Source: Turneriella sp.
GTDB taxonomy: Bacteria; Spirochaetota; Leptospiria; Turneriellales; Turneriellaceae
Reading direction: 5' to 3'
NCBI GenBank assembly: GCA_965279515.1
Contig: CBDIID010000003.1
Location: forward strand, 2,240,001-2,304,000
DNA length: 64,000 nt
Shown here: positions 12,997 to 27,239 of the stretch, piece by piece
Layout: every line of letters begins with the position of its first letter
How positions within the stretch are numbered: the first letter of the stretch is position 1
Position numbers and translations under genes: made by a program
The notes under the pieces: generated by a model
What the model was told of the DNA's origin: nothing
Database searches by the model: none
What the model saw: the letters and a program-made list of their open reading frames with translations, nothing else

Positions 12997-14520
12997 ATGA
13001 AGTTAAAAAGCATTGCCTTATTGGCAAGTTTAACAGTCTTCGCTGCTGCAGTTTCTGCCGCGCCGAAGAAAGCCCCGGCAAAGCCAGTGGCCGCTAAGGT
13101 AGACCCAAAAGTGGCTAAAGCTGAAGCAGAGGCAAAAGCTAAGGCGGAAGCAGAAGCAAAAGCCAAGGCTGAAGCGGCGAAGGCGCCCGAAGGCCCGCCG
13201 GACAAAGCGTCATGGTTCAATGTTGGTGGTAATCTCGTACAAGGTTACACTTATAACCCGCAACATCCGTCAGACGGATATAACGGTACATTGACCTGGA
13301 CAGACCGCGCGAATGAGTATCAGCTCAATCAGGCGTGGATGTACTTCGAGATTCCCACAGACACAAGCAAAAAAGATTTTGACTTTGGTCTGCGCGTGGA
13401 TACTATGTTCGGTTCCAGCTACCGTTGGGCAACCAGCGCCGGTTTTGAAGACAAACTGTTCAAAACAAATACCGGTAACGGCTCGAGCGTAGCAAGCAAC
13501 CAATATGGCTTGGCAATTCCCCAAGCATACGTTGATATGGCTTACAAGTCGCTGAAACTGCGCGTGGGTCACATCATATCGCCTGTAGGTTTTTTTACGG
13601 TGGATACAACACAGAACGTGTTTAATACCATCCCCTACACGTATGCTTACGGTGAGCCTTTCACGCACTGGGGTGCATTTCTGTATTGGACTGCCAGTGA
13701 TAAGCTGACCCTTATGGGTGGTGCAACACGCGGTGGAGATAACCTCGATGGCGCAGGTGTTGGCTCGAAAGTTCCCGGCTTCCTTGGAACGCTGACGTAC
13801 GTCTTCGACAACAAAGCAACCTTTGACTGGGTTGTTCACGTAAGTAAGGAATACAACTACCACAGCTCAACCACGAGCACAAACCCGGCTCAGAGTTATG
13901 CTTTGGGTTCGTACAACCCTGATGACAGTCTCTACAGCTGGAGGTACTTTCAGACGCTCGTCTATAAGCGCCCACTTACCTCAACGCTGCAGCTGGTTGT
14001 TCAGTCTGACTTCGGAATTCAAAAAGTGGCAGACATGAAGTCCGCTCTGGATGCAACAAATCCGCAGAAAGACAAAGACGTTACAGCAATGTGGTACGGT
14101 GCGAACGTGTACCTGATACACCAGACACTGCAAACGCTGCAACTCGCGGTTAACTTTGAATGGTTCCGTGACAATAACGGTGTTCGCGTAGGTAACGTGC
14201 TCCCCACATACTCTGCGGCAACAACAGGTGTGCGTGGTATGGGTTCGAACTATCTCGCCGGCGGCCGTCTGAATTACGTGGGTAACTTCTTCCAGGTTAC
14301 ATTCGGTCCAAAATGGCAACCACAGAAGAACTTCTTCGTTCGTCTGAATGGTCGTTATGACTACTTCGACGGAACAGCGTTGAATGCAACGACTGCAGCA
14401 ACACTCGCTGCTTCCACGGATGCTGCGACACGAGCTACAGATCCTGCCGCATTACCGTTTGGGAACGGAGCGAAAAAAGATCAGTTCGTAATTGGCTTAG
14501 ACGCAGCTCTCCTCTTCTAA
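12997..14520 (+). CDS. Outer-membrane beta-barrel porin (DUF1597/BBP2-like)
   Basis: Signal peptide, AEAKAK low-complexity linker, NEYQLNQAW, PQAY and EPFTHWG motifs, terminal Phe; strong AAGGAG RBS. Confidence 0.8.
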   Translation: MKLKSIALLASLTVFAAAVSAAPKKAPAKPVAAKVDPKVAKAEAEAKAKAEAEAKAKAEAAKAPEGPPDKASWFNVGGNLVQGYTYNPQHPSDGYNGTLTWTDRANEYQLNQAWMYFEIPTDTSKKDFDFGLRVDTMFGSSYRWATSAGFEDKLFKTNTGNGSSVASNQYGLAIPQAYVDMAYKSLKLRVGHIISPVGFFTVDTTQNVFNTIPYTYAYGEPFTHWGAFLYWTASDKLTLMGGATRGGDNLDGAGVGSKVPGFLGTLTYVFDNKATFDWVVHVSKEYNYHSSTTSTNPAQSYALGSYNPDDSLYSWRYFQTLVYKRPLTSTLQLVVQSDFGIQKVADMKSALDATNPQKDKDVTAMWYGANVYLIHQTLQTLQLAVNFEWFRDNNGVRVGNVLPTYSAATTGVRGMGSNYLAGGRLNYVGNFFQVTFGPKWQPQKNFFVRLNGRYDYFDGTALNATTAATLAASTDAATRATDPAALPFGNGAKKDQFVIGLDAALLF

Positions 14521-14539: not shown

Positions 14540-14569
14540 AAAAAGGCGGCCGCTGGCCGCCTTTTTTTT
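14540..14569. terminator. Bidirectional intrinsic terminator
   Basis: AAAAAGGCGGCC-GCT-GGCCGCCTTTTTTTT between convergent genes. Confidence 0.9.
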
Positions 14570-14571
14570 GC

Positions 14572-17500
14572 CTAGCGCTTTCGCTTTTTTTTCTTCCACT
14601 TCGACTTACCTTCGTTGGCGCCTTCATAGACCAGGCGCGGCGCAGTCTCGGCTGTCGCCTCGTGATCCCTGATATCGAAGTAATCCGTTTTGCCGGCATG
14701 CGAGCCCGCAGTGGGCGCCGTGGGATTCTCGTCTTTTACGATCAAAAGGTAGAGGCATGGTAAGACAGTCAGAATCAGCACCAATGCCGCAAACAGACCG
14801 CCGACGACGACCGTGGCAAGCGGTCGCTGCACGTCTGAACCCACCCCCGTTGCCAGCGTCGCGGGGATTAATCCCAGAAGCGCCAGCGTCATCGTCATGA
14901 GGCGGGGCCTCAGCTGCACAATCGCCGCGTGTTCGACGGCTTCCATGACGCTCATGTTCAGGTTTGACCTCAGGATCAGGTTTGTTCGCGAAACGAAGAG
15001 GACTCCCCCCATCGTCGCAATACCGAACAACGAGATAAATCCCACCCCGGCCGAGATGTTGAAGTAATAATCGCGGACGACGAGCGCCATGAGGCCGCCG
15101 ACCAGCGACAGCGGAATGCAGGCCAGCGCCACCATCACGTAACGCAGGCGTTTGTAGAGGCCATACAGCAGCGCAAAGATGATAAAGATCGTCACCGGAA
15201 TCGCTACCGCCAACTGCTTACCGACGCGCGCGAGGTTCTCATAGTTGCCGCCGTATTCGAGGCTGTAGTCCTCGGGCAATTTTACCTGCGCGGCAACCTT
15301 GTCCTGTAACTCTTTCACGAAACCACCCTGGTCGCGGCCGCGGATATTCGTGCGCACTGTGATGGCGCGCTTACCTTCTTGCCTGAAAATCATCGTTGGC
15401 CCATCGATGATGGAAATATCGGCAAGCTGCGCCAGCGGCACGCGTTCTCCGGTGGGAGCGAAAACCGGCAGGGCCTGCAGCGCCTTGACGCTCTTGCGGT
15501 ATTCATAGGGATACCGCACAACGATGCCGAAGCGCCATGGCCCTTCATACAGCGTCGATATCCGCTGGGCACCGATACCCCGCTCTATGACGCTCTGGAT
15601 CGTGCTGATATTGATGCCGTAGCGTCCGGCAACTTCGCGCTTGATCTTGATCGTCAGTTGCGGCGAGTCGGCTTCCTGTTCGAGACCATATTCCGAAGCC
15701 CCCGGAATCTGACTGAGGATATCGAGGATTTCATTGGCTTTTTGCCGGGCGATCTTGAGATCGGGCCCATAGACAAACACCGCCAATTCAGCAATGGTAC
15801 CGTTAATCGCCTCCTGCATGTTATCCATAATCGGCTGCGAAAAGCTCCAGCGCACCGAGGGAAACTCGTGTTCCATATCCTTGATAATGCGGATGAGCAG
15901 ATCCTGTTTTGTTATTTTCTCTTCCCACTTCGCGTAATCGTGCAGCGACATCGTGATTTCGAGGCGATTGGGCGGCAGCGGGTCGGTACCCGAATCGTTG
16001 CGTCCGAGCTGCGCCACGGAGTTGGCGATCATGGTATTCTTCGCCAGGACTTCCTGAATCTTCGGCAACTGCTTGTTTGCGGACTGCAAAGAAACACCTA
16101 CCGGGAAATATCCCCTAAGTGTCAGGTTGCCTTCGTCGAGCTCGGGCAAAAATTCAGACCCGATCTTCAGCGTACCGAATATCGTCAGGGCGAGAACGGC
16201 GCCGAATGCGATGGCGACGACCTTTTTGTAGCGGGCCAGCAAATAACGTACCACACGATCGTACTGTTTTTCTATCCAGCCGTATACCGGGTTGTGCCAT
16301 TCGATTTTCTCCTTGCTGTCGGATTCCCAGTATTTCCGGTAAATCATCGCCATTAACACGGGCACTACTGTCATGGCAAAAACGAGCGATCCGAGAATCG
16401 CGTAAGAAATCGTAAACGCCATCGGTTTAAAGAGCCGTCCCTCGATACGCTCAAACGAGAAGATGGGAATATAGGCGAGGATAATAATGAGCATCGAAAA
16501 GACGATCTCCATCCCCACTTCCTTGGTGCCGTTCAGCGTATACTGGCCGATATTCTGCGTGCGGTTGTCTTTTCGGTCACGGTAAAGCCGCGTGATGTTC
16601 TCGGCCATAACGACGACGCCGTCGACGATGATACCGAAGTCAATCGCGCCCAGCGATAAGAGGTTCGCCGAAAGCCCCGTCATCCGCATGAGAATAAAAG
16701 CGCAACAGAGCGAGAACGGTATCGTCAACACCACCACCATCGCGGTGCGCACCGAACCGATGAAGAACACCAGAATCAAGGTCACAATCGTCACACCCTC
16801 TATCAGGGTTTTGCTGATCGTATTCAAGGTATACTTGACGAGATCGCCCCGGTCGACCATGACCTTGACCTGCATGCCATCCGGCATGTATTTCTCATTG
16901 ATTTCTTTGGTCTTCGCGCGCAGTTTTTCTCCGGTAGTATTGGGGTCACACCAGCGCCGCATGGCCGTGTTCCCCTGGACTCCCGAGGGGACGCTGAACA
17001 GCGCTTCGCCGGCGGATTTATCCTGCGTGAAATAGTTCACAACCCCTTGCGGTATCAGCGGCGAAACTTCGACCGAGGCCAGGTCTTTAACGAAGACCGG
17101 TACGCCGCGTTCGGTTTTCACAAAAATATTTTCGATATCCTTGAGATTGCGGATAGCGCCCAGCGAACGGATCGCAAACCCCTGGTCGCCCTGGCGCAGA
17201 ATATTGCCGCCGCTGTTGAGATTATTATTCTGAATGGCGTTGACGACTTCTTCGAGATTGGTATTGTATTGAACCATCCGCTCCGGGGTCGTGATTACGT
17301 GGTACTGTTTTTCCAGGCCGCCGAATGTCACAACATCGGCAACGCAAGGCACCGATAGAAGTTTCGGCATGACTACCCAGTCCTGCACCGTGCGCACTTC
17401 CATCGGCGTATGGTTTTTTCTGCTCTCGACGATGTAACGGAAAATCTCGCCCGAAGGTGAACTCATCGGCGCAAGTTCCGGTTCCACTTCGGGGGGAATC

Positions 17501-17862
17501 TGCGCTTCCTTGACTTTTTCCATCAGACGTATGCGCGCGAAATAGTCGTCGGTACCTTCTTCGAAGACGAATTGGAATGTCACAAGGCCATTGATCGTCC
17601 GCGAACGCCTGACGCGCACATTGGGCGTATTATTTGTGACGCGCTCAATGGGCAGTGTCACACGCTCTTCAACCTCGACGGCGGCGCGCCCCGGAAACGC
17701 CGCAACCATACGTACCTGCGTATCGGCAATATCCGAATACGCCTCTTTCTGGATGCCGACCCACGACCAGATTCCCAGCGCTACGATGAGACCGGCGAGA
17801 CCGAGGGTCGGGAGTTTGTTCTTGAGGGCGAACTCCACCGCCCGAAAAATAATCTTATCCAT
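14572..17862 (-). CDS. CzcA/CusA-family heavy-metal efflux RND permease (copy 2)
   Basis: About 1096 aa; [46 protein letters not shown] at 17862 preceded by AAGGAG. Confidence 0.95.
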
Positions 17863-18005
17863 GATTGCTCCTTGCAACAAAGACATCTTTGTTTTATCCC
17901 TGCCTGGAGTCGGCGCGCAATGGCAGCCCGCGCAGAGCGGAGCTCAACACTCAAGACGCACCTCTCCATACCCGCGGGTTTTCCGCGGCATTAAAAATTT
18001 TTTGC

Positions 18006-18446
18006 TTAGATGGATCTTACCGGAGGAGGAATCGGATACCGGCTTGGGATATCAGATTGGGCAAAATAATGAAAATCATCGTCGGGATGGATGACACTCA
18101 GGAAAAAACCGGAAGGTTTCAGGACCGCAGAGGTGACCGTCTGCAGAAAAAAATCGCGAAAATGTTCCTGAAAACCGAATCGCAGAAGGCTGCCACGCTT
18201 ATTCGGATGCGCGAGTTTTTGGGCGACTTCACCCGCAGTTTCCCGCACGCCGTGCTCCGATGCCAGCCCTCCGCCTGCAGCATGCAGTTCGGGTGCCTTC
18301 TGGATATGACCGTAGCCGAAAGTTCCCGGCGGCTGCACGCCTCCGGCGACGGCAAATCCGGAGACGGCATAGAATAAAAGGAAGAGCACCGCGGGGATTT
18401 TTCTCCGCGGGGAAAATTCAGAAACTGCTTTCGAATCGGATAACAA
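18006..18446 (-). CDS. Putative leader/arrest peptide ORF 2 (146 aa; signal peptide; C-terminal SRYPIPPP)
   Basis: In-frame TTG 1 nt after the czcA copy 1 stop; aligns with 24800-25246 (DS..VS..PR, ELHAA, G[VI]RE, SRYPIPPP). Confidence 0.75.
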   Translation of the reverse strand: MLSDSKAVSEFSPRRKIPAVLFLLFYAVSGFAVAGGVQPPGTFGYGHIQKAPELHAAGGGLASEHGVRETAGEVAQKLAHPNKRGSLLRFGFQEHFRDFFLQTVTSAVLKPSGFFLSVIHPDDDFHYFAQSDIPSRYPIPPPVRSI

Positions 18447-18447
18447 G

Positions 18448-21400
18448 CTACCTCTTCTTCTTACGTTTCTTCCACTTCGACTTACCTTCGTTGGCGCCCT
18501 CGTAGACCAGCCGCGGCGGTGCCGCCGATTCCGCTGCATCTTTCGCCGCAAAATAGTCGATCGGCGATCCACCACCCGAAGACCCGGTCGATGGCGTCTT
18601 CTTTTCATCTCTGACGACGAGCAGGTAGAGGCAGGGCAGCACGGTAAGCACCAAGAGCATTGCCGAAGCGAGACCACCGACGATGACCGTTGCCAGCGGG
18701 CGCTGCACGTCTGAACCCACACCGTGGGCCAGCGTCGCGGGGATTAACCCCAGAAGCGCCAGGAGAATCGTCATCAGCATCGGCCGCAGCTGCACCTGCG
18801 CGGCTTTTTCGACCGCTTCAAACGTGCTCATGGTCAGGTTATTCGCGAGAATATGGTTCGTGCGCGAGACGAAGAGAACCCCCGACATCGTCGCAATACC
18901 GAACAGCGAGATAAACCCCACACCCGATGACACATTGAAATAATAATCGCGCATCACGAGGGCCATCATACCACCCACAAGCGAGAGAGGTATACAGGCC
19001 AAAGCAACCAGGACGAAACGGATATTTTTGAACAGCCCATAGAGCAGGCCGAAAATGATGAGGATCGTCGCCGGTATCGCAATCGCCAGCTGCTTACCCA
19101 CACGCGCAAGGTTTTCATAGTTACCACCATACTGCAGCGTATAGCCCTCGGGCATTTTTATCTGCGCATCGACCTTTTTTTGCAGCTCGGCGACAAAGGA
19201 GCCCTGGTCACGGCCGCGAATATTCGCACGTACTGTAATAGCGCGCTTGCCCTCTTGCCTGAAGATCATCGTCGGTCCATCGACAATGTCAATGTCGGCC
19301 AGCTGCGCCAGCGGAATACGTTCGCCAAGCGGTGAGAAAACCGGCAATGACTTCAACGCTTTGATGCTTTTTCTGTATTCATATGGAAAACGCACCACGA
19401 TACCGAAACGCCACGGGCCTTCGTACAGGGTGGATATCCTCTGCGCACCAATACCTTTCTCGATGAGGCTTTGAATGGTACTGACGTTGATGGCATAACG
19501 CGCGGCGACCTCGCGCTTGATCTTAATCGTCAGCTGCGGCGAATCGGCTTCCTGCTCGAGGCCGAATTCCGAGGCACCCTGGATCTTACGCATGATTTCC
19601 AGAATCTCGCTCGCTTTTTGCCGCGCGATCTTCAGGTCGGGACCGTAGACGAATACGGCCATATCGGCAATCGTACCCATGATCGCTTCGGACATGTTGT
19701 CCATAATCGGCTGCGAGAAACTCCAGCGGATCGACGGGAACTCGTGTTCGACATCTTTGATGATGCGGATCAACAAATCGTCCTTAGTAATTTTTTCATC
19801 CCATTTGCTATAGTCATGGAGTGCCATCGTGATTTCGAGACGGTTGGGCGGCAGCGGGTCAGTGCCCGAATCGTTGCGGCCGAGCTGCGCCACGGCATTC
19901 GCAATCATGGTGTTCTTTGCCAGTACCTCCTGGATTTTCGGCAACATCTTATTTGCAGACTGCAACGAAACACCAACCGGGAAATATCCCCTGAGCGTCA
20001 GGTTGCCCTCGTCGAGTTCGGGTAAAAATTCAGAACCGATGCGCATCCCGCCGAAAGTAATTAAGGCCAGCACGACACCAAAGGAAATATAGACGACCTT
20101 TTTATAACGTGCGAGCAAAAAACGCATGAGCTTGTCATAACGTACTTCGACCCAGGCATAGACCGGGTTATGCCATTCGATTTTTTCGTTCGAATCGGAT
20201 TCCCAGTATTTTTTGTAGATCATCGACATGAGGACAGGCATGATCGTCATCGCAAAGAGCAGAGACCCCAGAATGGCGTATGAAATCGTGAACGCCATCG
20301 GCTTGAACAGTCGGCCCTCGACGCGTTGGAATGAAAAGATCGGGATATAGGCCAGAATGATGATGAGAATCGAGAACACAATCTCCATCCCCACTTCTTT
20401 ACTGCTATTGAGCGTGTACTGGTTGATGTTCTGGCTGCGGCTAGCGCTTTTATCGCGGTAGCTGCGCATGATGTTCTCGGCCATGATCACGACACCATCG
20501 ACAATGATACCGAAATCGATAGCCCCCAGCGACAACAGGTTCGCCGACAAGCCGGTCATGCGCATGAGAATAAAGGCAAAGAGCAGCGAAAACGGAATCG
20601 TCAATACCACGACCATCGCCGTGCGCACTGAGCCGATAAAAAAGATCAGAATCAGGGTTACGACCGTCACGCCTTCGATCAACGTTGTACCGATCGTGCG
20701 CAGTGTATAGTTGACGAGGTCGGCCCTGTCGATCATGGGCTTCACCTGCATGCCGTCGGGCATATACTGTTCGTTAATTTCTTTCGTTTTAGCGCGCAGG
20801 TTGTCCCCGGTCGTATTGGGGTCGCACCAGCGCCGCATCGCGGTGTTTCCCTGGACGCCCGATGGAACCTTAAAGAGCGCCTCGCCCGCTGATTTATCCT
20901 GCGTAAAATAATTGATGATACCCTGTGGAATCAGCGGCGAAACTTCGACCGAGGCGAGATCCTTAACGAAAACCGGCACGCCCTTATCGACCTTGACGAC
21001 AATATTCTCAATATCTTTGATCGTGCGGATAGCCCCCAGTGAGCGAATAGCAAACCCCTGGTCCCCCTGGCGCAGAATGTTACCGCCGGTGTTCAGGTTA
21101 TTTTTCTGGATGGCTTCGACAACTTCATCGAGATTCGTGTTATACTGAACGAGCTTTTCCGGCGTCGTGATCGCATGGTACTGTTTCGCAACGCCGCCAA
21201 AGGTTACGACGTCGGCAACGCAGGGAACGCTGAGCAGTTTCGGCATCACAATCCAGTCCTGCACGGTACGCACTTCCATCGGCGTGTGATTTTTTTTCGA
21301 TTCGACTATATAGCGGAAAATTTCGCCTGAAGGTGAACTCATGGGCGCAAGTTCGGGCACGACCTCTGGCGGAATCTCCGCCTCTTTCACCTTTTCCATC

Positions 21401-21738
21401 AGCCTGATGCGGGCAAAATAGTCGTCTGTACCTTCCTCAAAGACAAACTGAAAAGTGACGAGGCCGTTGATCGTGCGCGAACGGCGTACGCGCACCTGTG
21501 GTGTATTGTTCGTCACGCGCTCGATGGGCAATGTGACGCGCTCTTCGACTTCAACGGCGGCCCGCCCGGGAAAAGCGGCAACGAGACGCACCTGCGTATC
21601 GGCGATGTCCGAGTAGGCTTCTTTCTGAATGCCGACCCACGACCAGATACCGAGCGCGATAATGAGACCAGCCAGTCCCAGGGTCGGCAGTTTGTTTTTT
21701 AGGGCGAACTCGACCGCCCGGAAAATTATTTTATCCAT
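18448..21738 (-). CDS. CzcA/CusA-family heavy-metal efflux RND permease (copy 1)
   Basis: 1096 aa; same RND-HME motifs; highly similar to copy 2. Confidence 0.95.
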
Positions 21739-21741
21739 AGT

Positions 21742-22701
21742 TTAGAAACCGACGGATAAGCCCTTGAGCAGCATGACGCCTTCCGTCACGACCGTATCGC
21801 CCTTCTTCAGCCCTTGCAGAATCTCGACGTATTCGTCGTTGGAGTTTCCAATCACGACGGTTTTTTTCCGGAACGTATCTTTCGCTTCTTCGACAAAAAC
21901 ATAGTTTTGACTTTCGACGGTAAAAATCGAAGTGAAGGGTAGCACCATAGGTGCTTTTTGGTCGTCGATGAATTCGACCTTGGCGAACATGCCGGGTTTG
22001 AACTTGCCATTTTCATTCGGGAAAATCACACGCACTTTTACAGTCCGCGTCGCCGGGTCGACGTTGTCACCCACGGCCTGCACCTTTCCTTTCATTTTCT
22101 TATCGGGGAAAGAATTGAAAATAATGTTCACGGCTTTACCGGCGCGGCAGGTGTCTAACCTGCTTTCGCTGATGTCAGCAATCATCCAGACGATGTTCGA
22201 GCCATAGTTGTTGAGGTCAGAGGGATTCACCCCTGCGGCGCGCAGCTTACCTTCCGATTCGGCGACCTGGGCCCCCGAGTTGCCGGCTTCGGTCTCGGCC
22301 TCGATGATGTCACGCTCGGTGGCAACCTGCATCGAGTACATGTCTTTCACGCGTTTGAGATTTTTCGAAGCACGCGAAGAGGCGTTGCGCGCCTGGCGGT
22401 ACGTGGCATACGCCGTGTTGAGATCGGCAGATTCGAAGAGCACGATTTTGCCCCCACTCGAAACCGAACGGCCGACGGTTGCAACCACGCGCGCCGGCGC
22501 CTGAATCTGTATGAATTCCTTGCCGCTGCCGAAGGGCCGCGTTTCAATGCGGGCACGCCCTTGGGCGCCTTCCGGGAAAAAGATCACTTCTCCCTTCTCG
22601 CGGATTTCAGGCGCCACATAGACCGTCGGCGGCTTTGCTTTCGGCCCGCAGGCAACAAGAACCAGACTCAAAAATACAGAATAAGACAGTATCGTCTTCA
22701 T
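21742..22701 (-). CDS. RND membrane-fusion protein (CzcB-like), lipoprotein
   Basis: Lipobox LVAC; VDPATRTVKVR and KPGMFA motifs; AAGGAG RBS (alternative in-frame start at 22734). Confidence 0.92.
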   Translation of the reverse strand: MKTILSYSVFLSLVLVACGPKAKPPTVYVAPEIREKGEVIFFPEGAQGRARIETRPFGSGKEFIQIQAPARVVATVGRSVSSGGKIVLFESADLNTAYATYRQARNASSRASKNLKRVKDMYSMQVATERDIIEAETEAGNSGAQVAESEGKLRAAGVNPSDLNNYGSNIVWMIADISESRLDTCRAGKAVNIIFNSFPDKKMKGKVQAVGDNVDPATRTVKVRVIFPNENGKFKPGMFAKVEFIDDQKAPMVLPFTSIFTVESQNYVFVEEAKDTFRKKTVVIGNSNDEYVEILQGLKKGDTVVTEGVMLLKGLSVGF

Positions 22702-22748
22702 TTTATTCTCCTTAATAGAAGTATGTTTTTTCATGATTATTCCTTTGT

Positions 22749-23312
22749 TTAACGTGGAAAAGTGAACAGGTAGCCGGCCTGAAAAATCAAGACCGGGTTC
22801 TTCATTTCATCCGACATGGCACGCCCCACCCCGCCCTGGAAGAAAAATCCGTCCATGAACAGTTCATAGGCGCCACCGATGTAACCGCTGGCCTGCGAGA
22901 CGCCGGTCTTGTCGTCAGGCAATGCCGGATCGAGCGCAAACAGCGGGTTGCGCTTCATATAGCCCCCGACAAAAGACAGGCTGTGGCGGATGCGATCGCC
23001 GTTAAACAGCGAGAAACCGACATCACCCTGAAAGCCCATAAAATTGCTGCCGTAAAACATGCCCGATCCCCTGAGGATAAAGCGCCACAGATGAAGCTGC
23101 GCATGCACATTGAGCCCCGAAGGCAAGCCAACGGTCGGCCCGATGGCAAAAAACGAATTTGTCAGCAGGTTACGGTCGATGGCCTCGTCGGCGTCTTTAT
23201 ACGCTTGGGCGAATTTATCCGTCTTCGCTTCGCTGTCCTTTGCCTGGGCAAACAGCACTCCGCCTGACAAAAATGCGCAAACCAACAATATACCAGGTTT
23301 GAAAGTTCTCAT
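22749..23312 (-). CDS. Small exported protein, probable beta-barrel OMP
   Basis: Signal peptide; Gly/aromatic alternating strands; C-terminal AGYLFTF. Confidence 0.6.
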   Translation of the reverse strand: MRTFKPGILLVCAFLSGGVLFAQAKDSEAKTDKFAQAYKDADEAIDRNLLTNSFFAIGPTVGLPSGLNVHAQLHLWRFILRGSGMFYGSNFMGFQGDVGFSLFNGDRIRHSLSFVGGYMKRNPLFALDPALPDDKTGVSQASGYIGGAYELFMDGFFFQGGVGRAMSDEMKNPVLIFQAGYLFTFPR

Positions 23313-23313
23313 A

Positions 23314-24759
23314 TTATTTCACCTCCGCGGCATTGTTGTTCGCCGGTACGGTTTGCAGGAAGATGATGTCTTTCCCGATCGAGTAGTTGATGTTCTCGAG
23401 GGCTTCGGTGCGCTGCGTTTTAAGGTCGATCAGCTGCACGATGCTGTTGCGGTAAGTCTCAAAGAAGTCTGCAAGTTCGATGACGGAGATATAACGTTTC
23501 TGGTAACTCGCCACCATCACCTGGATCAACTCGCGGAAATCCTGGACATGGCCGCCCTTGAATTCCTGGTAAATCTTGTCTTTTTCTTTCGCCTTAATCA
23601 GCGAAGCCGCGAGCTCACCTTCGAGCCTCATACGTTCGTTCATGAGCTCGCGTTTTTTTGCTGCGATCGCCTTCTTGGCCGATTCGATATTCCCCTGGTT
23701 GCGGTCGAAGAGCGGCACATTCACCTGCGCAGTGAGACCGAAGTAGTTGGGCTGATACGTGTTTGCGCGGTTAAAAACCGGCCCAAATGCCAGGTCGGGA
23801 ATCGCATTCGCCTCTTGCAGTTCGAGGTTCGCTGTCTCGTACTTGAGGTTCAGCATCGCGGTTTTGAGATCGGGCCTATGCGTCTCCGCATACTCAACGA
23901 GTTGCTTTATCTCGAGGCTGTTTGCAGCCGCATTCTCGAGCAATTTTTCGTCGACGAGCGGCACCAGTTGGTGCTCGGCAAGTTCAGGCCGGTTCATCAG
24001 CACGCGTAAATTCACTTCTTTCAGGCGCACATTCATCATGATGTTCGCGCGCTCATTGCGCAGAAAATAACTTAGCGCCTTGAGACGCAGGTACTCCGCT
24101 TTAGTGATCGCGCGGCGAGACAATGCCACTTCGGCGCCCTTCACAGTTCTGCCGAGAGCTTCGATCGTCTGGTCATAATACATGACGCTCTCGCGCATAT
24201 AATGGAGGGCGAAAAAAGTATTGCGCAGTTCAAACTTCAGCGCGCGTAAAACATTAAAGAACTCATTTTCCGTCAGCGCCTTGTTGATTTCCGCAACCTT
24301 GATCCGCTTATCGATCTTGCCGCCCATGAGAAAGAGCTGCTGTATCTGGATTACCTGGCTGCCGTTTTCGGTAGCATCGAGAAATTGCGCCGTCTTATGG
24401 CTGTAAATGCTGGTTTCGAGAAACACGCTGGGGTTTGCATAAAGCCCCGCCTGCATGACAAGCGCGCGTTTCGCCTCGATCTGAAATTTTGCCGCAAGGA
24501 GCAGCAGGTTTCTTTCGACGAATGATCGTTCGGCTTCTTCCAGCGAAAGTCTATAGACTTTCAGATCACTCGCCGCGAGCGTCGGCGAAGTGATTGGGTT
24601 CGCAACGATAGGCTCCGGTGTCTGCGACGCCGGTTTGGTCGCGGACACAGGCTCGGCGGACTTAATGAGCTCCGCCTCTTGTTTTTCCGGAATATCGCCA
24701 GCCTGCGCATACAGCGATGCAACCAAAACAAGAAAAAAAGATATAGATACTTTAAACAC
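23314..24759 (-). CDS. TolC/CzcC-family outer-membrane efflux protein
   Basis: RPDLK and VPLFDRNQGNI motifs; signal peptide; GTG start with GGAGG. Confidence 0.93.
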   Translation of the reverse strand: MFKVSISFFLVLVASLYAQAGDIPEKQEAELIKSAEPVSATKPASQTPEPIVANPITSPTLAASDLKVYRLSLEEAERSFVERNLLLLAAKFQIEAKRALVMQAGLYANPSVFLETSIYSHKTAQFLDATENGSQVIQIQQLFLMGGKIDKRIKVAEINKALTENEFFNVLRALKFELRNTFFALHYMRESVMYYDQTIEALGRTVKGAEVALSRRAITKAEYLRLKALSYFLRNERANIMMNVRLKEVNLRVLMNRPELAEHQLVPLVDEKLLENAAANSLEIKQLVEYAETHRPDLKTAMLNLKYETANLELQEANAIPDLAFGPVFNRANTYQPNYFGLTAQVNVPLFDRNQGNIESAKKAIAAKKRELMNERMRLEGELAASLIKAKEKDKIYQEFKGGHVQDFRELIQVMVASYQKRYISVIELADFFETYRNSIVQLIDLKTQRTEALENINYSIGKDIIFLQTVPANNNAAEVK

Positions 24760-24799: not shown

Positions 24800-25246
24800 T
24801 TATGCGAGAGAGAGGGCAGGTGGAGGTATTGGGTAGCGGGAATTAAGGTGCGTATGCGCAAGTGAAATAAGATTAGCGTTCAGGCAGGCATCACCCAGAA
24901 GCAGCAGCGGTTTGTTGAGTTTCTGGGCTGCGAAGGCCATGGGAAAGAGTTCCCACAGGGAAGATCCGGATGTATTGTGACGAGGCGGAGTGAAGCGGTT
25001 GTTACCCTGTTCGATCCGTTGGATTTCTTCGGGTGAAGATTCACGGATACCCTGCGCCGGTGACGTAAAGTCACGCGCAGCATGCAACTCAAGCGTACTG
25101 ATGTGCAGCGCTGAGCTTTTCACAACTTTGGGTGACAGGTCTTGCGTTGCAATGCTGAAGCTGCAAAGCACCAGAACTGATGCGATCAGTACAGAGAAAA
25201 CGCTTCTTGGTGCCGAGACAGATACGTTCATAATGCTATCAACCAA
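24800..25246 (-). CDS. Putative leader/arrest peptide ORF 1 (148 aa; signal peptide; C-terminal SRYPIPPP)
   Basis: Hydrophobic N-terminus; directly upstream of tolC; paralogue at 18006-18446. Confidence 0.78.
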   Translation of the reverse strand: MVDSIMNVSVSAPRSVFSVLIASVLVLCSFSIATQDLSPKVVKSSALHISTLELHAARDFTSPAQGIRESSPEEIQRIEQGNNRFTPPRHNTSGSSLWELFPMAFAAQKLNKPLLLLGDACLNANLISLAHTHLNSRYPIPPPALSLA

Positions 25247-26144: not shown

Positions 26145-27239
26145 CTATAATTTCAGGCTCGCGGCGGCGGTCACAATATGTTCCTGCGGACGAACAGCGT
26201 CGGAAAAACGGTAAATACCATCGGCGGCAAAAAAATTACGGTACTCCAGGCGGAGCACATAGGCCTCCTGCGGCTGAAAATTCAGATTCCAGGTAAATCC
26301 TCCCACCTGAAAACCATTCGCAGTGCCCGTCGCCACCATCACTTGTTTCGGATCGATAAAATATTCGAGGCGGATTGCGGTATTCCACTGCGGATTCAAA
26401 ACATAACGCGCGTACGCGGCGCCGGTGTACCATTGCCGGTACGATTCAAGGCCTGCGGTTTTTTGTACACCCACGTCGCAGGTAAGGGCAAATTGCCACG
26501 AAGCTGAAAGAGAAAACTGCAAAATTAAATTACTGTAAAACCGGTATTGCGGCGTATTGTCGTCGGGCGCGACGTTGCCGGCAAAAGAATTGTGAATAAT
26601 TTTCAATTGCGGTGAGAATTCATAGCTCACCTGCGTGCCTAAACTTTTATCGCGGTTCGTCGGCGTGATGACCTGCCAGCCGTTCAGTATGTGCAGTTGT
26701 AAAATCAGTTTTTGCGTCGCTTCGTAAGTCAGCCGCACACCCGTCGCATAATAAGGCACGTTGTCGAGATTTAAGGCACGCGAATAATTCCAGTTGGTGT
26801 GGGATATCCACGATTCATAACCGATATGGCCGAAAAAGATTCCGGCATCGAGCCAGAGCTTATCAAAAAATTTATAACCGACAAAAGCCTCCTGTAGATT
26901 TCGCGTCGAGAGCTGGTTCGAATATTTTTCCGTGTTCGTTTCGTTCTGGTAGTTTGCATTCACGGAAGTTCCGAACTGTAGCGCGAGGCGGCCACGGATG
27001 TGCTTTTCATCCACCGCCGCTTCAACATGCGCTAGATTGATATTAAATTCGCGGTCGCGGGCAATCTGCGTGAGATATTGCCGGTCACTGCTGGCTGGCC
27101 GGTAGACGCTCGATGCATAATACGTGTCGATGAAAACACCGGGCCTTACCAGGGGTTTTTCCGCCGCTTCGGTAACAGCATAAACGCCCTGTGCGGTTAG
27201 ACACAGGGCTGTCAGAACACATGTTGAAACTTTAGTCAC
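26145..27239 (-). CDS. Outer-membrane beta-barrel porin (DUF1597/BBP2-like)
   Basis: DTYY, EFNINLA, DAGIFFGHIGYES...NWNYSR...PYY motifs. Confidence 0.82.
   Translation of the reverse strand: MTKVSTCVLTALCLTAQGVYAVTEAAEKPLVRPGVFIDTYYASSVYRPASSDRQYLTQIARDREFNINLAHVEAAVDEKHIRGRLALQFGTSVNANYQNETNTEKYSNQLSTRNLQEAFVGYKFFDKLWLDAGIFFGHIGYESWISHTNWNYSRALNLDNVPYYATGVRLTYEATQKLILQLHILNGWQVITPTNRDKSLGTQVSYEFSPQLKIIHNSFAGNVAPDDNTPQYRFYSNLILQFSLSASWQFALTCDVGVQKTAGLESYRQWYTGAAYARYVLNPQWNTAIRLEYFIDPKQVMVATGTANGFQVGGFTWNLNFQPQEAYVLRLEYRNFFAADGIYRFSDAVRPQEHIVTAAASLKL

Follow-up and report, generated by a model that had tools for sequence, protein, structure and literature searches.

A polyproline leader between two czcA paralogues of Turneriella and its possible role as a soft translational switch

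CutF is described as stalling the ribosome at Pro-Pro-Pro and opening a hairpin that holds a Shine-Dalgarno (SD) sequence (PMC9973294; 10.1101/2025.02.05.636593), and uA_LPPP, from Planctomycetota, is reported to stall at LPPP (PMC10987492). In the available part of the survey of CutF-like genes, which lists 5334 proteins, such genes often precede CusC/CzcC and CusA/CzcA, and Spirochaetota are called scarce (PMC9973294). The literature searched says little about post-transcriptional control in spirochaetes, and the search found no description of a spirochaete family of Pro-Pro-Pro leaders at czc genes. Here we describe such a family and analyze one of its members, leader 2, which lies between two czcA paralogues and which we read, with a probability of roughly 0.45, as a stall-gated, soft translational switch on the second of them.

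The window, that is, the whole stretch of 64,000 nucleotides analyzed, comes from a Turneriella assembly of 4.9 Mb and 53% GC. It contains the following operon.

24800..25246, minus strand: leader 1, 148 aa, ending in SRYPIPPPALSLA; predicted to mask the czcC ribosome binding site (RBS) 40 nt downstream
23314-24759, minus strand: czcC-like outer-membrane factor gene, within the block 21742..24759
22749-23312, minus strand: 187-aa gene of unknown function, between the czcC-like and czcB-like genes
21742-22734, minus strand: czcB-like adaptor gene, upstream of czcA1
18448..21738, minus strand: czcA copy 1 (czcA1), starting 3 nt past the czcB stop
18006..18446, minus strand: leader 2 reading frame, TTG start, 146 aa, paralogue of leader 1
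14572..17862, minus strand: czcA copy 2 (czcA2), 1096 aa, CusA/CzcA family, 84% identical to czcA1
14540..14569, minus strand: terminator-like GC hairpin after czcA2 with A and T runs at its flanks, read by eye

The minus-strand order is leader 1, czcC, the 187-aa gene, czcB, czcA1, a gap of 586 nt and czcA2. Both czcA copies score above the CusA/CzcA cut-off, with czcA2 passing TIGR00914, and ZneA is the nearest solved structure to czcA2. The hairpin after czcA2 resembles the one past the single czcA of genome G008, and none like it follows czcA1. A scan of positions 17600-18800 returned no sigma-70-like promoter, where 0.6 were expected (a weak test), and one weak minus-strand terminator-like site. 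Given the hairpin after czcA2 and the absence of promoter-like sites from the scanned region, a single transcript running from leader 1 through the terminator past czcA2 is likely. Misassembly at the czcA1/czcA2 junction was rejected, since single contigs from four public runs, which may be the source samples themselves, span it with no differences. Genes for rho and efp were both found in the genome. BBP2-family porin genes lie on both sides of the operon (12997-14520, plus strand; 26145-27239, minus strand). The operon itself is a mosaic: leader 1 and czcC are nearest to those of G008 (39% and 87%), and czcB and czcA are nearest to those of genome G012 (79% and 87%) and distant from those of G008 (57% and 70%), with which the window nonetheless has flanking genes in common (loci L031 and L033 compared).

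On sequence grounds, the leader 2 reading frame is real. The original prediction drew it from the tail of a 238-aa ORF (18722-18006), with a TTG start at 18446, 1 nt past the czcA1 stop, and took it for a hidden leader; coordinates and letters proved correct, the frame yields 146 aa ending in SRYPIPPPVRSI, and profile and pairwise matches bear it out as a conserved paralogue of leader 1. The two leaders align over their full length (26% identity over 148 columns, E 2e-9) and have ELHAA, G-RE and, at their ends, SRYPIPPP in common. Leader 2 alone retrieves leader 1 from the genome (E 3.7e-4), matches the leaders of genomes G008 and G010 pairwise (E about 1e-4) and matches the family profile, in which it is itself included, with E 4.7e-30. 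A search for homologues with the single sequence returned 57 candidates, of which none scored. Scanning the ends of genome ORFs for [YF]PxPP gave 14 matches, among which only leaders 1 and 2 appeared leader-like by eye, and a frame as long as leader 2 remains open in 1.2% of base shuffles. The parts of leader 2 and of the region that follows it are these.

18345..18446, minus strand: predicted signal-peptide-like N-terminus, with RRK, hydrophobic IPAVLFLLFYAV and AVA (by eye and hydropathy)
18030..18149, minus strand: C>G tract ahead of the Pro codons, with 35 C and 22 G; a possible site of Rho loading
18021..18038, minus strand: YPIPPP codons, the predicted stall site, of which 18038-18024 form the anti-SD strand
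17873..18005, minus strand: spacer with three predicted hairpins that would bring the Pro codons beside the czcA2 RBS
17961..17975, minus strand: likely relic of a czcC-type RBS, 30-45 nt past the leader 2 stop, resembling the RBS that follows first leaders
17856..17872, minus strand: SD (AGGAG), spacer and start codon (ATG 17862) of czcA2, the distal target

The best 12-residue Kyte-Doolittle mean of the leader 2 N-terminus is 2.55, within the 2.2-3.6 of all 15 family rows, and in the AlphaFold model, built on an alignment of 6 rows, a helix at residues 13-34 is the sole part with pLDDT about 70; the model is otherwise unstructured (pLDDT 49) and too poor for a fold search. Pro-Pro-Pro occupies residues 140-142 of 146, and the protein has no Cys and 7 His. 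Its TTG start, with merely a weak GAGG ahead, counts against a gate on czcA2. Similar CCGCGG inverted pairs occur in the 5' part of leader 2 (18384-18415) and past its stop (17972-17989); the main contig holds 22 such pairs, and an origin from a repeat element was considered.

Leader 2 belongs to a spirochaete family of Pro-Pro-Pro leaders found mostly ahead of czc genes. The joint 15-row profile matches 91 of the 190 genomes of the class, a few weak matches being probably due to chance, and most Leptospira genomes scanned have a member at the head of their czc operon, where a syntenic leader ends in LN(L/I)PPP. The link between its Turneriella and Leptospira halves is one of synteny and anatomy, the two having been aligned jointly and not found from each other; a search of 1.84 billion representatives with the Turneriella profile retrieves 9 such proteins and a single long match that is unrelated. 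Family members are annotated as 'hypothetical protein' (e.g. Q8F4S7), leaders 1 and 2 have no Pfam family, none of the 15 family rows has a relevant Pfam match, and there is no relevant NCBIfam match. Pro-Pro-Pro is the only feature invariant in all 15 rows, each of which also carries a hydrophobic N-terminal stretch 86-123 residues before it, and P-I-P-P-P is invariant in the six same-genus leaders. The family has no invariant Cys or His and no CxxC, which counts against the gate. Among 13 same-genus genomes, four have the operon, with one leader each, ending in (Y/F/L)PIPPP, and one profile match each (three of these four assemblies are fragmented); none of the 13 is a second genome with leader 2. 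None of the gaps between tandem czcA genes in eight Leptospira loci holds such an ORF, and the internal copy between czcA paralogues was seen only in this window. A leader stands 130-190 nt ahead of a stand-alone czcA in three genomes (G054, G166, G167), which counts in favor of the gate.

Family leaders also head operons for alginate-export-type porins, SulP permeases and hydrogenase-4-like complexes (L167, G112:C1:574000-592000; L180, G122:C21:10000-22000), and two leaders occur in genome G112, where one precedes a porin gene and the other, internal to the operon, precedes a hydrogenase-4-like membrane complex. Because of these members, the signal may not be metal and may instead be export load, pH or bicarbonate. 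Many g21 genomes carry two family leaders in tandem before czcC (L044:3530-4526, L060, L163, L183, L200-L225), the first of which ends in YL(N/S)LPPPV and frequently has a GC hairpin after it. Searching for related loci with czcA2 alone returned none in metagenomes and one Leptospira idonii locus; with the alignment, the search returned 77 loci, and a scan for Pro-Pro-Pro found, among the matches listed, family leaders in L060 and L067.

The Pro codons of leader 2 had been predicted to pair with the RBS and start of czcA2, 18038-18024 with 17872-17856, and the letters agree: the duplex is one of 9+5 bp, with a single C.C mismatch and a bulge formed by the AU of the start codon, amounting to 14 bp and -14.8 kcal/mol with 151 nt between the strands. 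The own SD and spacer of czcA2 both match leader 2 codons, and czcA1 has no such SD, which counts in favor of the gate. Synonymous recoding of the tail equals the pairing in 2.5% (uniform codons) or 1.7% (genome codon usage) of 5000 trials. Compared against 620 other start regions of the genome that bear an SD, the 15-mer of the pairing strand, chosen after the fact, equals the cognate pairing at 14, and longer strands do so at 67 (19-mer) and 97 (33-mer). Overall, the pairing lies only modestly beyond chance (p about 0.02-0.1). Net of self-folding, the cognate site stands at -7.3 against a mean of -8.5 for 374 SD-bearing genes, of which 61% are as good or better, and this counts against the gate. 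The match between leader 2 and the SD is partly built in, since Pro codons in the form CCU-CCU resemble the 16S anti-SD; 27 of the 1634 Pro-Pro pairs of the genome are encoded in this way, and the register of the pairing depends on which Pro codon is used. Scans for free duplexes across 250 nt proved too noisy and were discarded.

In folding, the predicted helix fared unevenly. It appeared in six of the seven folds that start at 18045 (pair probability 0.55-0.99, and 0.01 in the remaining one) but in none of the 14 that start at 18060 or 18100 (at most 0.17), because local pairings compete once sequence upstream of 18045 is included. That the helix would form mainly when a trailing ribosome covers the upstream RNA is plausible but speculative. 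The switch predicted for leader 2 is 1.5 kcal/mol, with 7 of 100 synonymous recodings as good, and ranges from -1.0 to 3.8 kcal/mol by window of folding, having the wrong sign in one of five. The spacer folds at -52.8 kcal/mol (z -2.6, 2/200 shuffles), and its second hairpin buries the GGAG core of the relic RBS, an alternative target of the Pro codons (-16.4 kcal/mol as an isolated duplex) with pair probability of at most 0.17. No mini-ORF coupled to czcA2, of the kind seen at Leptospira czcC (below), was found. A 62-codon ORF at 17969-17781 (minus strand) runs across the czcA2 start in another frame, probably by chance; it would start at ATG 17969 or else at TTG 17954, which the relic SD precedes.

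The original prediction had further taken the match between each leader and its own target for covariation, and this stood in one direction. For the czcA2 RBS, leader 2 is the strongest partner (-17.3, against -6.3 to -12.5 with the others), but leader 2 equals or betters the cognate with most czcC RBSs (-16.6 to -20.6); covariation beyond chance finds support at the level of the family and is weak for the leader 2 helix. In Turneriella, cognate combinations beat swapped ones on net binding energy (23/720 permutations), and the raw-duplex version is not significant (89/720). In Leptospira, 1714 of 362880 permutations match the cognate pairing, computed over nine lineages grouped by eye from 28 loci that were picked for alignable spacers; across these loci cognate binding averages -10.7 vs -9.3 kcal/mol, and a conserved GGAG window is the best target in 20.

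In Turneriella, the leaders are predicted to hide the following RBS through their Pro-codon region. In all five same-genus first leaders, the predicted energy of opening the RBS drops by 6.5-9.9 kcal/mol once the Pro codons are masked, counting in favor of the gate, with leader 1 at 9.9 kcal/mol. The same long-range design recurs in genome G013, where the RBS lies 168 nt past the stop and the spacer forms three hairpins (z -4.9, 0/200 shuffles). Counting against the gate, synonymous recoding of the five first leaders does as well as the observed pairing in 22-97% of trials, since Pro codons are C-rich anyway. The predicted switch is variable in Leptospira (median 2.9 kcal/mol), and because it is at most 1.5 kcal/mol in 11 of 28 leaders, SD masking may not be the only output of the family. 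Leptospira-type loci have a conserved GGAG/GGAGG target 41-57 nt before the czcC ATG (in alignment A4, for example, L060:2795-3017, L038:4042-4264 and L190:1895-2117, minus strand). In 16 of the 28 loci the GGAG precedes a mini-ORF of 11-15 codons whose stop overlaps the czcC start (ATGA), and in five Leptospira loci an in-frame CTG gives an N-terminal extension instead; the letters suggest an order of leader, mini-ORF and coupled czcC.

Under the reading of leader 2 as a switch, one transcript would span leader 1 to the terminator past czcA2, and coupling to the czcA1 stop would let leader 2 translation begin at the TTG. The nascent chain would enter Sec by its N-terminus and be exported during a pause, the ribosome stalling at Pro-Pro-Pro; so placed, it would cover 18038-18024 and leave AGGAG and AUG of czcA2 open. 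When no stall occurs, the Pro codons would pair with the RBS across the three spacer hairpins, damping czcA2. Predictions make this a soft gate (1.5 kcal/mol, or 0-4 by window of folding), under which czcA2 would serve as a pump subunit of the second tier. Candidate signals would be a divalent metal, sensed through His residues, none of the seven being invariant, or export or envelope load.

The C>G tract before the Pro codons makes Rho control the main rival of this reading, or its partner. The same stalling leader could have a CruR-like, Rho-dependent termination output, with a stalled ribosome shielding a C-rich loading site so that RNA polymerase continues into czcA2, and the helix being incidental or secondary; we consider this unlikely. 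In the 120 nt before Pro-Pro-Pro, C exceeds G in 115 of 119 distinct leaders, which are related and so not independent, vs 38 of 94 downstream windows, and the median C/G ratio is 1.71 vs 0.94 in downstream genes. The excess extends in part to silent sites, at which C3/G3 in Leptospira is 2.25 near Pro-Pro-Pro vs 0.97 downstream. Of 2394 ORF ends in the genome, 36 have a C/G ratio as high as that of leader 2 (top 1.5%), the rho gene is present, and the available part of the CruR report describes a C>G bubble and a gap of 162 nt, near the 143 nt at leader 2 (PMC9426467). Against this, the silent-site bias is weak in Turneriella (1.19; leader 2 has 7 C vs 7 G), amino-acid content may explain the tract, and the spacer is strongly structured and G-rich.

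Quite unlikely, in our estimate, is that leader 2 is the relic of an operon duplication that lost czcC-X-czcB, leaving czcA2 constitutive from its own SD or an internal promoter. The remnant of a czcC-type RBS past the leader 2 stop suits this account, as do a czcA2 RBS predicted to be nearly open without a stall (5.8 kcal/mol), a czcA2 branch longer than that of czcA1 (0.19 vs 0.057) and the eight leaderless Leptospira pairs. The czcA copies are sisters (support 94/98, short of the strict threshold) separated by about 0.85 substitutions per fourfold site (156/317 identical), and the persistence of an open frame, a hydrophobic N-terminus and YPIPPP over such silent divergence argues against a relic if the duplication took place in situ. 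In simulations that make the same assumption and introduce substitutions without indels, a neutral ORF that has diverged by 0.2-0.45 substitutions per site remains open in 10-1.5% of cases and retains YPIPPP in 9-0.5%. The empty promoter scan, weak as a test, also speaks against an internal promoter. Toward their 3' ends the copies are identical over about 27-30 nt (14593-14619 and 18469-18495), where contigs of run X1 break, silent sites elsewhere being near-saturated; gene conversion is a possible origin of this stretch.

That the leader 2 product is a small exported protein acting in trans on the pump or binding metal, with Pro-Pro-Pro and the pairing as side effects, is very unlikely, for despite the signal-like N-terminus, the 7 His and an Atlas likeness to CzcI, a suggested metal-sensing regulator in the available text of PMC9973294, same-genus leaders are only 18-39% identical where their pumps are 67-89% identical, conservation is concentrated at the C-terminal motif, the model is unstructured, and in the czc loci read the leader always lies immediately upstream of its target gene.

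The proposed translational gate and Rho gating can coexist, which puts some regulatory role for leader 2 at about two chances in three. The leader that heads the Leptospira czc operon as a 'hypothetical protein' is a conserved and testable candidate, and in this window leader 2 had gone unrecognized as a gene. The internal copy offers a natural experiment, in which one transcript carries two homologous leaders of different predicted strengths, with a near and a far target, and two leaders with two pump paralogues make stalling, SD masking and Rho control separable at one locus. A broader conjecture, rather unlikely as a whole, would have spirochaetes control their envelope transporters through a portable gate of cysteine-free exported polyproline leaders, whose stall codons also act as anti-SD; the same gate would head czc across Leptospira, the mid-operon copy would place czcA2 under separate control so that RND inner-membrane subunits are swapped or mixed on demand, and the signal might be export load, pH or bicarbonate.

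Among known systems, CutF (DUF2946-like, from Rhodobacter capsulatus cutFOG) resembles leader 2 in being a short upstream ORF with C-terminal Pro-Pro-Pro and a metal-handling gene next to it. CutF has a Sec signal, whereas the signal-like N-terminus of leader 2 is predicted only; the CutF stem-loop is described as intergenic within a 40-bp gap (PMC8456105), whereas in leader 2 the Pro codons themselves would be the anti-SD strand for a target 151 nt away, and leader 2 has no CxxxC, no Pfam match and a position internal to the operon. By the filters given for CutF-like proteins in the available text (PMC9973294), leader 2 has the size (<150 aa, PP within the last 15 residues), lies directly upstream of a metal-homeostasis gene, czcA2, and shows, for the signal peptide, a basic-hydrophobic-AxA pattern and a predicted helix; no DUF2946, CutF or CruR family profile matches it, and it contains neither CxxC nor CxxxC, though clusters of His only occur too. 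Leptospira, Turneriella and Q8F4S7 do not occur in three supplementary files of that survey (8054 characters), which apparently lack the full protein list, and some Leptospira leaders may be on it. CruR of Bordetella pertussis (DUF2946) is likewise about 145 aa, predicted to be exported and provided with Pro-Pro near its end, a long gap (162 nt) and a C>G bubble; as far as the available text goes, it has the motifs CXXC and RAPP and controls an importer by way of Rho, whereas leader 2 carries YPIPPP, has no Cys and precedes an efflux subunit (PMC9426467). CzcI of Cupriavidus metallidurans is, like the leaders, the product of a small gene upstream of czcCBA; unlike leader 2, it has no C-terminal proline motif according to the available text (PMC9973294). 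SecM and CzcI are the nearest named Atlas clusters to leader 2 and to a Leptospira member (0.93), as a lead only, the shared-feature counts with CzcI being low (87 and 111 of 256). SecM, MifM, VemP and uA_LPPP combine a signal sequence with a C-terminal arrest motif, as leader 2 is predicted to do, and the LPPP of uA_LPPP resembles the LNLPPP of Leptospira (PMC10987492); they lie before secA, secDF or yidC, with no sequence match to leader 2 shown. In SecM-type arrest the stalled ribosome disrupts an SD-masking hairpin, the counterpart of which at leader 2 is predicted, at 1.5 kcal/mol, and depends on the window of folding. The surprise is limited, in that the basic control logic is already known from CutF, CruR and SecM, of which the arrangement at leader 2 would be a variant.
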